A stretch of 21,281 bases of DNA from a virus (lineage: Duplodnaviria > Heunggongvirae > Uroviricota > Caudoviricetes), in the IMG/VR virus record IMGVR_UViG_2671180673_000012. One strand, given 5' to 3'. Position 1 is the first letter of the stretch. Every line of letters starts with the position of its first letter. A program made the translations under genes and the position numbers. Below, in pieces: positions 4,933 through 21,281 of this stretch. A model generated the notes under the pieces. It worked only from the letters and a program-made list of their open reading frames with translations, made no database searches and was not told where the DNA came from.

Positions 4933-5099
4933 GATGGCAGCCTCCGCGATGAATTTGATTAACTCACCACCGAGGTTTTCCACGACCATAAGGGTGGTGA
5001 GACGTACAGGGGTGGAAATACCGGTCATCACGGAACCCGGCCAGCCTTGCGGCTGCCCTGCACGCCCCACCATAATGCGAATGTGGCTGTGCTTAACGC

Positions 5100-5124
5100 A
5101 TAAAAAAACCGCCTGAGCGCGGTT
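5100..5124 (-). terminator. Rho-independent terminator, leftward transcription
   Basis: On the minus strand: 6-bp stem AACCGC/GCGGTT, 6-nt loop, then a run of T; located upstream of the Rha RBS. Confidence 0.5.
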
Positions 5125-5775
5125 ATGCGCCGTGAATGATTTCGGGTTTCCACGCCCGGCACCCGTTTTATGAGGTGCAGGTGCACTATAATTCCACCCG
5201 TTCTGGTTTTCAATAGCTACATTCAACATTTTCTCTACCTTTCATCACCGAAGTGAACTTTGTTGATGCGGTGCCTGGTGCCTCCAGGTGACGTTAACCA
5301 GTTAACAATTAACGTCGGATACAGAGCATTCCCGTTACGCCCGTAAAAGACCGCTTGTTTTAACTGTTCCGCGTGCGCTGAGCCGCATTCACCGCATCAC
5401 AAAATTCACTTTAAAAAGGGCGGCAGAGCAGTCACGGAGTAGAACTGATACCGCCAAAAGTCACCAGAAAATTGATAACAGAGGGCGTTGCAGCGGAGTT
5501 GTCACTTAAGCGTATGGTCAACCTGACAACCCGGTGTCCTCAACGGGGGAAGGAATAACCCCGCCATACTTACCGCCGCGCCATTTCGCGGATTGCCACA
5601 ACCGGAAGCGCACGATCGAATTAAATTTAACGACGACCTATACAGAGAGACTAACTTCTCCGGGCGCTTTCGTGTTATGCCCTGACTTTTCAGGGATATA
5701 TCCTTTTCAGTAAACTGTCAGTGCCGGATTCTTATCCGTGTCCGGCGCACGCACTCTACCTCACCTGTGAATAAA

Positions 5776-13136: not shown

Positions 13137-13194
13137 TGCAGCGGGTGCTTGAGGCTATCTGTCTCAGGCATGAACACCAAAAGGCAGATAGAGA

Positions 13195-13265
13195 AAAGCC
13201 CCAGTTAACATTACGCGTCCGGCAAGACGCTTAACATTAATCTGAGGCCATATCTATGCTCTACA
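13195..13265 (-). ncRNA. Putative Sok-like antisense RNA region (approximate)
   Basis: Inferred only from hok/sok architecture, where the antisense RNA overlaps the mok-like start region of the leader; boundaries not determinable from sequence. Confidence 0.3.
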
Positions 13266-13312
13266 CACGTAGGTTAGCCTCTTACGTGCCGAAAGGCAAG
13301 GAGAAGCAGGCT

Positions 13313-13468
13313 ATGAAGCAGCAAAAGGCGATGCTAATCGCCCTGATCGTCATCTGTTTAACCGTCATTGTGACGGCACTGGTAACGAGGAAAGACCTCT
13401 GCGAGGTACGAATCCGAACCGGCCAGACGGAGGTCGCTGTCTTCACAGCTTACGAACCTGAGGAGTAA
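13313..13468 (+). CDS. hokD: Hok/Gef-family type I toxin (51 aa)
   Basis: MKQQKAMLIALIVICLTVIVTALVTRKDLCEVRIRTGQTEVAVFTAYEPEE: single transmembrane helix plus conserved RK(D/S)LCE(V/I)R motif; AGGAG RBS 9 nt upstream; the ORF-track entry from 13256 is an in-frame mok-like extension. The hokD/relF assignment is from recalled sequence. Confidence 0.85.
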   Translation: MKQQKAMLIALIVICLTVIVTALVTRKDLCEVRIRTGQTEVAVFTAYEPEE

Positions 13469-17091: not shown

Positions 17092-17466
17092 ATGCTCATA
17101 GATTTGGTTTTACCTTACCCGCCGACGGTGAACACTTACTGGCGACGCCGTGGCAGCACATATTTTATCTCGGAGGAGGGAAAGCGTTATCGCCGGGCTG
17201 TGGCGCTTATTGTTCGCCAGCAGCGGCTGAAATTAAGCCTGTCCGGAAGGCTGGCGATAAAGGTGATTGCAGAGCCACCGGATAAGCGTCGTCGCGACCT
17301 GGACAATATCCTGAAAGCACCGCTGGATGCGCTGACGCATGCGGGAGTGTTAATGGACGATGAGCAGTTTGATGAAATCAATATCGTTCGTGGTCAGCCA
17401 GTATCTGGTGGACGTATGGGGGTGAAGATTTACCCCATAATGCATGAAGAGCAGGTCAAAAAATGA
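17092..17466 (+). CDS. rusA: RusA-family Holliday junction resolvase
   Basis: 124 aa; RusA-like motifs (PPTVNTYWRRRG ... KRRRDLDNILKAPLDALTHAGVLMDDEQ); GAGGTG RBS 5 nt upstream. Confidence 0.85.
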   Translation: MLIDLVLPYPPTVNTYWRRRGSTYFISEEGKRYRRAVALIVRQQRLKLSLSGRLAIKVIAEPPDKRRRDLDNILKAPLDALTHAGVLMDDEQFDEINIVRGQPVSGGRMGVKIYPIMHEEQVKK

Positions 17467-18284
17467 AACTGGAAGATTTACCGAAATACTACTCCCCAAA
17501 ATCCCCTGGCCTGACCGATGCATCGGCCTCAACGTCAAAAGATGCGCTGAGTATCACTGATGTGATGGCCGCGCAGGGCATGACACAGAATCGGGCTGAG
17601 ATGGGGTTTTCTGCGTTCCTGGGGAAAATGGGCATCAGTATGAATGACAGGGCGCGGGCAACAGAATTACTGGCAGATTATGCACTCAGTCGGTGCGATC
17701 GTGTGGCGGCGTTGAGAAAACTTCCGGCAGAAATAAAACCGGTAGTGATGCGCATTATGGCTTCGTATGCGTTTGAAGATTATGCCCGTAGCGCGGCGAG
17801 CAAAAAACAGTGCCCCTGCTGTCACGGAAAAAAATTTATTGAAAGCGAGGTTTTTACAAACAAGATCCAGTATCCGGATGGTAAGCCACCAGTGTGGGCA
17901 AAGTGCACAAAAGGCGTGTATCCGTCTTACTGGGAAGAATGGAAAAAAGTCAGGGAGGTGGTAAAAGTTGCCTGTCCGGAGTGTGGCGGAAAGGGTGAGG
18001 TTTCCACCGCCTGTAAGGATTGCCGTGGGCGTGGTGTCGCCATTCATCGTGAAGAGTCGGTAAAACGTGGTATGCCTGTTATCAGAGANTGCCAGCGTTG
18101 TGGTGGTCGTGGCTGTGAAAGNCTNCCATCAACGGAGGCATTTAATGCCATATGCAAAGTGACGAGTGCTATCACGCTTGATACGTGGAAAAAATCAGTG
18201 AAACGCTTTTACGATACGTTGGTGGTTCGGTTTGACATTGAAGAGGCATGGGCGGAGCGGCAGTTAAAGAGGGTAACGCGATAG
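17463..18284 (+). CDS. Late-gene antitermination protein Q
   Basis: 273 aa starting MKLEDLPKYYSPKSP; repeated CxxCxGxG zinc-finger motifs; ATGA coupling to rusA; immediately upstream of the late promoter and terminator. Confidence 0.85.
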   Translation: MKLEDLPKYYSPKSPGLTDASASTSKDALSITDVMAAQGMTQNRAEMGFSAFLGKMGISMNDRARATELLADYALSRCDRVAALRKLPAEIKPVVMRIMASYAFEDYARSAASKKQCPCCHGKKFIESEVFTNKIQYPDGKPPVWAKCTKGVYPSYWEEWKKVREVVKVACPECGGKGEVSTACKDCRGRGVAIHREESVKRGMPVIRXCQRCGGRGCEXXPSTEAFNAICKVTSAITLDTWKKSVKRFYDTLVVRFDIEEAWAERQLKRVTR

Positions 18285-18365: not shown

Positions 18366-18389
18366 CCCCGCCGCCTGGCGGGTTTTTTA
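18366..18389 (+). terminator. Rho-independent terminator (tR'-like), presumed target of Q antitermination
   Basis: CCCGCC-GCCT-GGCGGG hairpin followed by TTTTTT, about 50 nt downstream of the promoter -10. Confidence 0.6.
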
Positions 18390-18510: not shown

Positions 18511-18708
18511 ATGCTAAAACAGCAGGATATGACAGAAACCGCCAGAGTNGTGTTTAATGAATTAAGCGTTACCGAACCGGCGACAGTCGGGGAGATNGCN
18601 CAGAATACTTACCTTTCACGCGAACGCTGCCAGTTAATACTGACCCAGCTGGTTATGGCGGGTCTGGCAGACTATCAGTTCGGTTGTTACAGACGCCTTC
18701 CGCAGTGA
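18511..18708 (+). CDS. Small hypothetical protein (65 aa)
   Basis: ATG at 18511 with AAGGGA upstream; the ORF-track entry from 18424 is an N-terminal extension; n-derived X residues present. Confidence 0.45.
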   Translation: MLKQQDMTETARXVFNELSVTEPATVGEXXQNTYLSRERCQLILTQLVMAGLADYQFGCYRRLPQ

Positions 18709-18718
18709 AGGCTTTTTT
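18695..18718 (+). terminator. Hairpin plus T-tract overlapping the small-ORF stop
   Basis: GCCTTC-CGCAGT-GAAGGC followed by TTTTTT. Confidence 0.5.
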
Positions 18719-18858: not shown

Positions 18859-19908
18859 ATGCTTAATACTGTAAAAATATCCAGTTGTGAGTTAATCAAC
18901 GCCGACTGCCTGGAATTTATCCGGTCGTTACCCGAAAATTCTGTTGACCTGATAGTCACGGACCCGCCGTACTTTAAAGTGAAGCCTGAGGGCTGGGATA
19001 ACCAGTGGAAGGGCGACGATGATTACCTGAAGTGGCTGGACCAGTGTCTGGCGCAGTTCTGGCGGGTGCTGAAACCTGCCGGAAGTCTTTACCTGTTCTG
19101 TGGTCATCGCCTGGCATCTGATATCGAAATCATGATGCGTGAACGCTTCAGTGTGCTGAACCATATTATCTGGGCGAAGCCGTCCGGACGCTGGAACGGA
19201 TGCAACAAGGAAAGCCTGCGGGCGTATTTCCCCGCCACAGAGCGCATTCTGTTCGCGGAACATTATCAGGGGCCGTATCGTCCGAAAGATGCCGGGTATG
19301 CGGCGAAGGGCAGTGCACTGAAACAGCATGTGATGGCCCCGCTGATTTCTTACTTTCGTGATGCGCGCGCGGCCCTGGGGATAACGGCAAAACAGATTGC
19401 AGATGCCACAGGAAAGAAAAACATGGTGTCGCACTGGTTCAGTGCCAGTCAGTGGCAGCTACCGAACGAAAGCGATTATCTGAAATTACAGTCGCTGTTT
19501 GCCCGGGTGGCAGAAGAGAAACATCAGCGCGGTGAACTGGAAAAGCCCCACCACCAGCTGGTGGATACGTATACGTCACTGAACCGGCAGTATGTGGAGC
19601 TGCAGAGTGAATATAAGCATCTGCGGCGGTATTTTGGTGTGACGGCGCAGGTGCCGTACACGGATGTGTGGACACATAAACCGGTGCAGTTCTATCCCGG
19701 GAAACATCCGTGCGAAAAACCGGCAGAAATGCTGCAGCAGATAATCAGCGCAAGCAGTCGTCCGGGTGACCTGGTTGCAGATTTTTTTATGGGCTCAGGT
19801 TCAACGGTAAAAGCNGCACTGGCGCTCGGGCGTCGTGCGATTGGCGTTGAACTGGAGACCGGACGTTTTGAGCAGACAGTCAGGGAAGTTCAGGATTTAA
19901 TCGTTTGA
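18859..19908 (+). CDS. DNA N6-adenine/N4-cytosine-family methyltransferase (DPPY motif), orphan phage methyltransferase
   Basis: 349 aa; motif IV DPPY near the N-terminus (LIVTDPPYF) and AdoMet-binding FFMGSGST near the C-terminus (beta-class order); no adjacent restriction endonuclease gene. Confidence 0.85.
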   Translation: MLNTVKISSCELINADCLEFIRSLPENSVDLIVTDPPYFKVKPEGWDNQWKGDDDYLKWLDQCLAQFWRVLKPAGSLYLFCGHRLASDIEIMMRERFSVLNHIIWAKPSGRWNGCNKESLRAYFPATERILFAEHYQGPYRPKDAGYAAKGSALKQHVMAPLISYFRDARAALGITAKQIADATGKKNMVSHWFSASQWQLPNESDYLKLQSLFARVAEEKHQRGELEKPHHQLVDTYTSLNRQYVELQSEYKHLRRYFGVTAQVPYTDVWTHKPVQFYPGKHPCEKPAEMLQQIISASSRPGDLVADFFMGSGSTVKXALALGRRAIGVELETGRFEQTVREVQDLIV

Positions 19909-19957
19909 AACGGATGAGATTGCAGAATTAATTACGCACCATTATTATTCTGCTNCC

Positions 19958-20033
19958 GGCCCTTTAGCTCAGTGGTGAGAGCGAGCGACTCATAATCGCC
20001 AGGTCGCTGGTTCAAATCCAGCAAGGGCCACCA
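19958..20033 (+). tRNA. ileZ: tRNA with CAU anticodon, Ile2 (lysidine)-type by resemblance to ileX/ileY
   Basis: Manual cloverleaf: acceptor GGCCCTT/AAGGGCC, D-arm GCTC..GAGC, anticodon loop CTCATAA, T-loop TTCAAAT, encoded CCA. Confidence 0.85.
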
Positions 20034-20040
20034 TCACATA

Positions 20041-20117
20041 CCGCCATTAGCTCATCAGGAAAGAGCGCCAGCCTTCGAAGCTGGTTGCGCGGAGTTCGGG
20101 TCCCCGAAGGCGGTCCA
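20041..20117 (+). tRNA. argN: tRNA-Arg (anticodon UCG) with atypical T-loop and one acceptor-stem mismatch
   Basis: Manual fold: D-arm GCTC..GAGC, anticodon stem CCAGC/GCTGG, loop CTTCGAA, T-loop TTCGGGT, encoded CCA. Confidence 0.7.
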
Positions 20118-20130
20118 TTATCTGTATCCT

Positions 20131-20207
20131 GCGTTGTTAGCTCAGCCGGACAGAGCAATTGCCTTCTAAGCAATCGGTCACTGGTTCGAATCCAGTACAA
20201 CGCGCCA
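20131..20207 (+). tRNA. argO: tRNA-Arg (anticodon UCU)
   Basis: Manual fold: acceptor GCGTTGT/ACAACGC, anticodon stem ATTGC/GCAAT, loop CTTCTAA, T-loop TTCGAAT, encoded CCA. Confidence 0.85.
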
Positions 20208-20223
20208 CACTTATTTTCCCTGG

Positions 20224-20246
20224 CTCGCTTTTGCGGGCTTTTTTTT
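20224..20246 (+). terminator. Rho-independent terminator after the tRNA cluster
   Basis: GCTCGC-TTT-GCGGGC hairpin (one G-U pair) followed by eight T. Confidence 0.55.
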
Positions 20247-20443
20247 AAATGTCTCACAATTCAGGCGGTTGACTGTTGTCTGGTTTGCGGGGAGTTTGTT
20301 AAAAGAAACTGGCATGGTGAATCCCCCTGTGCGGAGGGGCAATCAGCGAGTAGGTATATGGGATAATCGCGGATTCAGGTGCTGGTACTGAATTCACCGG
20401 GAGGCACCCGGCACCATGCAATGGCACATAGCGCCACTCTCCA

Positions 20444-20465
20444 GCCCCTCTCCGGAGGGGCTTTT
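20444..20465 (+). terminator. Hairpin terminator-like element
   Basis: GCCCCTC-TCCG-GAGGGGC followed by TTTT. Confidence 0.4.
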
Positions 20466-20656
20466 CTGTGCCGGATACATCACAGTTTCTGGAACCTTAG
20501 GTACTACAGTATCAGTCAGGGTGCTATATTTTCAGATGTGATGAAAGCCTGTCAGCAGGCAGGGCGTATCGGAAATGACCCAGTAGAGAAAACGTTGACT
20601 CAGATACCGGTGCTGAGTTACCGGGAAACCGGCATCACATGACCGCTATCCTTCCA

Positions 20657-20683: not shown

Positions 20684-20772
20684 ACTGCAGAAAACAGGTT
20701 CCCCGTTAAATGCTATGTTGAACCGCCCCGGGAATCCTGGAGACTAAACTTCCTGAGAAAGAGGTAAACAGG

Positions 20773-21099
20773 ATGACTAAAAATACTCGTTTTTCCCCCG
20801 AAGTCCGTCAACGGGCAGTCCGTATGGTTCTGGAAAGTCAGAGCGAATATGACTCACAATGGGCGACAATTTGTTCCATTGCTCCAAAGATTGGCTGTAC
20901 GCCGGAGACTCTGCGTGTCTGGGTTCGCCAGCATGAGCGGGATACCGGGGGCGGTGATGGAGGGCTCACCACCGCTGAACGTCAGCGTCTGAAAGAGCTG
21001 GAACGTGAAAATCGTGAACTGCGCCGCAGTAACGATATCCTTCGCCAGGCTTCCGCTTATTTTGCGAAGGCGGAGTTCGACCGCCTCTGGAAAAAATGA
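20773..21099 (+). CDS. IS629-like transposase OrfA (HTH, leucine-zipper region)
   Basis: 108 aa: [19 protein letters not shown] ... [31 protein letters not shown], an IS3-family OrfA pattern. Confidence 0.85.
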
Positions 21100-21281
21100 T
21101 GCCACTGCTGGATAAGCTGCGTGAGCAGTACGGGGTCGGACCGCTATGCAGCGAACTGCATATTGCCCCGTCAACGTATTACCACTGTCAGCAACAGCGA
21201 CATCATCCGGATAAACGCAGTGCCCGTGCGCAGCGCGATGACTGGCTGAAGAAAGAGATACAGCGCGTATACGATGAAAAT
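21096..21281 (+). CDS. IS629-like transposase OrfB, N-terminal fragment (partial, runs off window)
   Basis: -1 frame relative to OrfA, starting in the AAAAAATGATG overlap; reads [30 protein letters not shown]...; no stop before the window end. Confidence 0.8.

Follow-up and report, generated by a model that had tools for sequence, protein, structure and literature searches.

The three tRNA genes near the end of the window (the whole 21,281-nucleotide stretch of DNA that was analysed) are the ileZ-argN-argO cassette of lambdoid E. coli prophages. The feature itself is already known. What is added here concerns the allele of argN, the middle gene: it appears to be derived and weakened, one of a series of alleles in decay, and it occupies the slot of the cassette that is under the least constraint. 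The best explanation for the feature as a whole – a weakened argN in the cassette of a lambdoid, Stx-phage-like but stx-less E. coli prophage – is likely to be correct.

ARAGORN found three tRNA genes, all on the + strand, and none elsewhere in the 21.3 kb of the window. All three also exceed the gathering score of 29 of the Rfam tRNA model:

19958-20033, + strand: ileZ, CAU anticodon, tRNA-Ile2 (lysidine) type (ARAGORN; Rfam RF00005 72.5 bits, E = 2e-14)
20041-20117, + strand: argN, tRNA-Arg(UCG), derived allele (ARAGORN; Rfam RF00005 43.4 bits, E = 2e-6)
20131-20207, + strand: argO, tRNA-Arg(UCU), canonical (ARAGORN; Rfam RF00005 70.1 bits, E = 1e-13)

The order is CAU, UCG, UCU on the same strand, with spacers of 7 nt and then 13 nt. 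The initial annotation had described a trio with these anticodons at these positions, and ARAGORN and the Rfam tRNA model match it exactly. The window contains 17 ambiguous bases (N), none of them within a tRNA gene. One is at 19955, 3 nt before the start of ileZ, at a site where C is present in related loci; another is at 19815, inside a methylase gene.

Phage records match the cassette at 87-95% nucleotide identity (megablast). They include Stx-converting and other lambdoid phages, several of them labelled ileZ/argN/argO. Some match to the trio was found in 3061 of 5426 genomes, with 7597 matches in complete E. coli genomes, and the 291 bases around it are 99.7% identical in many complete E. 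coli genomes (RefSeq, annotated as tRNA-Ile/Arg/Arg), where the sole difference is an N in the window. The gene naming rests on GenBank feature labels and agrees with the usual names of the trio. No open-access full-text paper was found that has the names ileZ, argN and argO together, and ‘ileZ’ alone led to unrelated papers. The likeness to the lambdoid ileZ-argN-argO clusters that had been suggested from the sequence is thus borne out, both by the labels of the phage records matching this stretch and by the context, which is that of a Q-side late region.

The genes upstream of the cassette are DUF968, RusA, antiterminator Q and an N6/N4 DNA methylase. The last two are:

17463..18284, + strand: antiterminator Q gene (Pfam PF03589, E = 8.7e-48; ‘antitermination protein’ in the collinear locus L001)
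18859..19908, + strand: N6/N4 DNA methyltransferase gene, directly upstream of the cassette (Pfam PF01555, E = 1.4e-43)

With Q at this position, the cassette belongs to the late region of a lambdoid prophage. Between 15714 and 20720 the window runs collinear with a prophage of E. coli ATCC 11775, in which the holin and lysozyme genes lie downstream of the cassette. The gene order rusA-Q-methylase-tRNAs is that of stx phages (PMC3491183, Fig. 5 legend). Stx-converting lambdoid phages (933W and the Sakai-type Stx2 phages; AP012536, AM072972) have the same anticodons, order, strand and spacing, and the same position after Q and the methylase, but in the window no stx genes follow argO. What follows instead is a terminator-like hairpin, then an sRNA of the STnc100 type and an insertion of the IS3 family. 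Genes for tRNAs are also found behind Q in other lambdoid phages (PMC3636060). Phages SfI, Sf6, ST64T and P21 have them in the same slot between Q and the lysis genes and with the same proposed role, matching phage codon usage, but they encode other tRNA species, Asn and Thr (PMC3636060).

Sequences that could start and end transcription of the cassette were found on either side of it:

19920..19948, + strand: promoter-like element (-35 TTGCAG at 19920-19925, 17-nt spacer, -10 TATTAT at 19943-19948), with ileZ 9 nt on
20222..20248, + strand: intrinsic-terminator-like hairpin, GGCTCGC TTTT GCGGGCT (20222-20239), plus a T run, closing the cassette (terminator scan)

The promoter-like element was recognised by locus comparison only. 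A strict sigma-70 consensus scan upstream of the tRNAs listed no promoter, and the -35 hexamer matches the consensus at only 3 of 6 bases. Among loci with three unrelated upstream contexts (the 3’ end of the methylase, a Q-side terminator and another terminator), homology starts exactly at TTGCAG. About 190 of 195 loci retain both the -35 TTG and the TATTAT, with a spacer that varies freely. In O157 Stx2 phages, a ‘pS tRNA promoter’ has been named upstream of these tRNAs (PMC2858043). The cassette probably has its own promoter in addition to read-through from the Q-controlled late transcript. The terminator-like sequence downstream of argO is conserved in two related prophage loci, L122 and L124, and the terminator scan also listed hairpins after Q, at 18367-18382 and 18695-18712.

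The two outer genes appear normal. ileZ is identical at 68 of 76 positions to K-12 ileX, the gene for tRNA-Ile2, in which the CAU anticodon is modified to lysidine. The two genes share the anticodon loop CTCATAA, the pairs C4-G69 and C5-G68, A73 and the CCA end. These two pairs are reportedly TilS determinants (Ikeuchi et al. 2005). ileZ differs from ileX in being phage-borne and in eight substitutions, including a compensated change of C6-G67 to U6-A67 and an A·C mismatch in place of G·U at pair 27-43, at the top of the anticodon stem (window 19984 and 20000). The A27·C43 mismatch is evidently tolerated, since it is present in the majority allele: the window allele of ileZ accounts for 105 of the 128 copies sampled. 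An identical gene is labelled tRNA-Ile by PGAP. In argO, every stem is fully paired, with a TTCGAAT T-loop, a G73 discriminator and an encoded CCA. The window allele is again the commonest sampled, with 58 copies. Relative to canonical elongator architecture – four paired stems, T54 and A58 – argO conforms fully and ileZ conforms except for A27·C43. On their sequences, then, the ileZ and argO genes of the window are consensus alleles and presumably functional.

The argN gene departs from this architecture in three ways. There is a mismatch in the acceptor stem, CCGCCAT/AAGGCGG, at A6·A67, and another in the T-stem, CGGAG/CCCCG, at A52·C62; and the T-loop, TTCGGGT, has a G at position 58, which is a near-universal A elsewhere. 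These irregularities had been read from the sequence before, and cloverleaf threading, a scripted check and pair counts found all three. Another register of the T-loop that would restore A58 was sought by eye and ruled out, as the loop contains no A. The anticodon arm, with a normal 7-nt loop (CTTCGAA, with U33 and A37), the D-arm, G18-G19, A20 and the encoded CCA are all intact. The first pair, C1-G72, and the discriminator, U73, are both unusual for an E. coli tRNA-Arg.

Identity as tRNA-Arg in E. coli depends on A20, C35 and G36 or U36, with a purine at position 73 as a minor determinant. Both arginine genes have the main set. A20 lies in the D-loop of each, ATCAGGAAA in argN and AGCCGGACA in argO, and their anticodons are UCG and UCU respectively. 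The purine at the discriminator (A or G) is absent from argN, as U73 is found in every Arg(UCG) allele sampled, and present in argO as G73. Because position 73 is a minor determinant, U73 does not exclude charging of argN.

In comparison to the canonical alleles sampled in related prophage contigs, the argN gene of the window differs at four positions in the T-arm and acceptor stem and has three structural defects. The changes from the nearest canonical allele are G52A, A58G, U63C and U67A. The cloverleaf of the window allele has a predicted energy of -20.0 kcal/mol, versus -28.3 to -31.3 kcal/mol for canonical alleles, making it weaker by about 8-11 kcal/mol. It also lies 7 kcal/mol above the minimum free energy (MFE) structure of the same sequence (-27.0 kcal/mol), in which the T-arm is replaced by a hairpin, 54-58/63-67 (UUCGG-GUCC-CCGAA, window 20094-20107). 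All four changes favour this hairpin. MFE folding was judged too weak a test of function – the MFE structures of ileZ and argO also miss the cloverleaf – and cloverleaf energies relative to canonical alleles were used in its place.

Alleles were compared in 120 IMG/VR loci found through the argN anticodon arm, 120 found through ileZ, and eight E. coli loci. There were 11 alleles of ileZ, 26 of argO and 34 of argN, the last number obtained although argN-anchored sampling fixes the anticodon arm of that gene. Many of the argN alleles are fully canonical. The L006 type, for example, with a T-stem of CGGGG/CCCCG, a T-loop of TTCAAGT and no fault in the acceptor stem, reaches 58.4 bits against the Rfam model; the commonest allele (L002 type) scores 56.0 bits. 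Alleles with G58 alone or A67 alone score about 54 bits. The window allele, at 43.4 bits, is 13-15 bits below canonical, the window allele with an additional G10T scores 33.8 bits, and several middle-slot sequences are below Rfam detection. The initial annotation had called the gene diverged or non-functional. The first part stands: the allele is derived, and canonical alleles have none of its three lesions. The second part we infer only, since no automated caller rejects the gene: ARAGORN, Rfam and PGAP (without a pseudogene flag) all call a tRNA, and the rejection by a gene caller that had been named as a partial refutation of function was not seen.

The direction of change is indicated by paralogues that are built on the same scaffold. 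The Lys(UUU) and Arg(UCU) genes on the argN scaffold keep A58, A6-U67 and G52-C62, and the three states in the window are therefore derived. Across the 49 distinct alleles of the scaffold, standard pairs make up 97% of pair cells. Anticodon-stem pairs 27-43 and 30-40 and acceptor pair 7-66 show compensated changes; the cells left unpaired at 6-67 and 52-62 are those where window-type alleles have their mismatches, without compensation. The window-type clade gathers more damaging changes, including CCA to TCA, G10T and G50A. Intermediate alleles hold the four changes G52A, A58G, U63C and U67A in several combinations, which are read here as drift and recombination and not as design. Three IMG/VR loci (L047, L070 and L086) have a window-type argN with no encoded CCA together with an argO that has T-stem and acceptor mismatches, which suggests that the entire cassette is decaying in these lineages.

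A scan of species-representative genomes with the argN anticodon arm returned no clear donor lineage for argN; the matches were mostly unrelated coding sequence. Genuine chromosomal tRNA-Arg(UCG) genes of distant phyla were identical to argN at 51-59 of 77 positions and had only the anticodon arm in common with it. The scaffold itself was present in three contigs only, one from E. albertii and two from metagenome-assembled genomes, the latter suspected to be misbinned. The argN scaffold appears to be confined to Escherichia.

Judged by variation across related prophages, no part of the cassette is less constrained than the middle slot. Nucleotide diversity is 0.020 in ileZ, 0.037 in argO and 0.085 in argN. 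The argN value is lower than those of the second spacer (0.16) and the flanks (about 0.3; 0.16-0.32 overall), all of these values being approximate, as only 40 loci (31 haplotypes) could be aligned without gaps. The content of the slot was counted in the ileZ-anchored sample, in which 117 loci were usable. About 33 of the 117 have a canonical Arg(UCG) gene and 15 have the window-type argN. In about 26, the slot is disrupted – the anticodon arm has been replaced, and in most copies the T-loop is also broken. About 16 have a Lys(UUU) gene, three of these frameshifted, and six have an Arg(UCU) gene. An argN/argO fusion is found in three loci and a deletion of the anticodon arm in four.

In the RefSeq loci examined, the middle gene is affected and the flanking genes stay. 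The copy in the Stx2e prophage of ETEC4068 (L122, 1600-1680) is labelled tRNA-OTHER by PGAP. In this locus and in L123 and L125-L127, the middle slot still has the argN acceptor stem, with GACGAC-ACGATAACAGG-GTTGTT in place of the anticodon arm; this sequence could pair over 6 bp to close an oversized loop. ST131 and others have a broken T-loop as well (GGGGGCGGG), and PGAP calls no middle gene in them. Degenerate variants of the trio are also described in stx2i phages, as tRNA-pseudo variants (‘tRNA-pseudo - tRNA-Arg’; PMC13641118). In both these phages and the RefSeq loci the cassette decays or varies, with at least one Arg gene retained. The window allele differs from them in being at an earlier, milder stage, as every caller still gives tRNA-Arg.

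The slot may also be occupied by genes with other anticodons. Locus L129 (1517-1826) has a Lys(UUU)-Thr(UGU)-Gly(UCC) cassette behind the same promoter-like element and ileZ, and its Lys gene has the argN scaffold with compensated anticodon-stem changes. The alternatives behind this element and ileZ in IMG/VR loci L148 and L145 include an Arg(UCU) gene on the argN scaffold with G73 and, in L145, a copy of argN with a single-base switch of the anticodon, TCG to TCT.

The codons that the trio would read are enriched in the prophage. The ORFs in the window have 9.4 ATA, 8.9 AGA, 6.7 AGG and 6.7 CGA per 1000 codons, versus 2.6, 0.7, 0.4 and 2.7 in a 45-kb control region of E. coli K-12, an enrichment of 2.5-17-fold (2.5-fold for CGA). 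This fits the rare-codon logic that the initial annotation had put forward. The rare-codon rationale is textbook for Stx phages, and E. coli otherwise reads CGA and CGG only through inefficient inosine wobble. The cassette would be transcribed from a putative sigma-70-type promoter of its own and by Q-antiterminated read-through, ending at the putative intrinsic terminator, and the single precursor RNA would be cut into three tRNAs. ileZ would give a lysidine-bearing tRNA-Ile, made by host TilS, that reads AUA; argO would read AGA and, less well, AGG; and a canonical argN would read CGA and CGG. The argN gene of the window, having lost two stem pairs and the T54-A58 pair of the T-loop, would most likely be a poorly folding, hypomorphic or dead copy, one stage of a decay or replacement that appears to affect the middle slot in many prophages.

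On its sequence, the window argN is probably impaired in function. It is rather doubtful that the gene is a fully working tRNA-Arg(UCG), with deviations that are tolerated on a phage-specific scaffold, that supplies CGA/CGG decoding. In its favour, the gene passes ARAGORN, PGAP and Rfam (by 14 bits over the gathering score) and has its anticodon stem-loop, D-arm, A20 and CCA intact; against it, the score is 13-15 bits below the canonical alleles, and the predicted cloverleaf lies 7 kcal/mol above an alternative fold. At least six allele backgrounds that are perfect in every other respect have G58, a recurrence which suggests that this change is tolerated, but the T54-A58 pair that it removes is a nearly universal tertiary contact in tRNAs. 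The Lys(UUU) paralogue has a conserved A·C in its T-stem, and the argN scaffold may accept such pairs; all three changes in the window allele are nevertheless derived and uncompensated. In all, 246 complete E. coli records contain exactly this allele, annotated as tRNA-Arg among the matches listed, and CGA is enriched in the prophage ORFs. This wide spread could be hitch-hiking in a long-resident prophage, and the descendants of the allele accumulate further lesions, such as loss of the encoded CCA. Human clinical isolates account for many of the best-matching genomes, and in these the match lies at a similar chromosomal position.

The variety in the middle slot could also be the product of selection. 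Under one proposal, the slot is under diversifying selection against tRNA-cleaving toxins or defence nucleases, or the window allele has been re-shaped into another small RNA through the 54-58/63-67 hairpin; this seems highly improbable. A single scaffold (C1-G72, U73 and the same D- and T-arms) does bear Arg-UCG, Lys-UUU and Arg-UCU anticodons, with compensated changes at 27-43, 30-40 and 7-66 and the one-base switch in L145, and anticodon nucleases such as colicin D and PrrC are known to target tRNAs for Arg and Lys. Such nucleases act at the anticodon loop, however, and this loop is unchanged in the window argN; no defence or toxin gene is linked to any variant here. The four changes do all favour one alternative hairpin, but their several combinations among the intermediates fit drift and recombination, and many variants have plainly been destroyed by deletions, broken T-loops and fusions. 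Put more generally, as a fast-evolving, exchangeable position on the C1-G72/U73 scaffold in which changes to the tRNA body were selected (for evasion of toxins or defence, for replacement, or for a small RNA that is not a tRNA), the proposal is still very unlikely. Decay of argN in the least constrained slot is the preferred reading.

Hundreds of phage records and thousands of E. coli genomes already have the cassette annotated, and it has little weight as a discovery. The argN alleles are of more use as a series, running from canonical to single-defect and triple-defect alleles, then to loss of the CCA or a broken D-stem, and finally to undetectable remnants. The series is a natural example of the decay of a tRNA gene beside two conserved neighbours. 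Since annotation pipelines label the triple-defect argN a normal tRNA-Arg, counts of ‘functional’ prophage tRNAs may be inflated. The anticodon-swapped paralogues on one scaffold could be of interest in research on tRNA identity switching or phage counter-defence.

Downstream of the cassette, the window contains two further elements:

20283-20473, + strand: STnc100-type sRNA (136 bits), directly after the terminator that follows argO
about 20721-21281, + strand: IS3-family element, running off the end of the window, with an ORF at 20773-21099 (HTH_Tnp_1) and an ALIL frameshift pseudoknot at 21054-21170

The sRNA has its own terminator at 20443-20462. Most of the related loci that were examined have a member of the STnc100 family close to the tRNAs, some of them two, and the anti-sRNAs AgvB and AsxR are found in some related loci. 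Homology to the ATCC 11775 prophage ends at 20720 and the IS3-family element comes next, interrupting the region in which the intact relative has its lysis genes. Four other RNAs were identified elsewhere in the window by Rfam:

4990-5077, - strand: C4 antisense RNA
5102-5178, - strand: isrK
5418-5469, - strand: DicF
13143-13318, + strand: hok/sok-type antitoxin RNA
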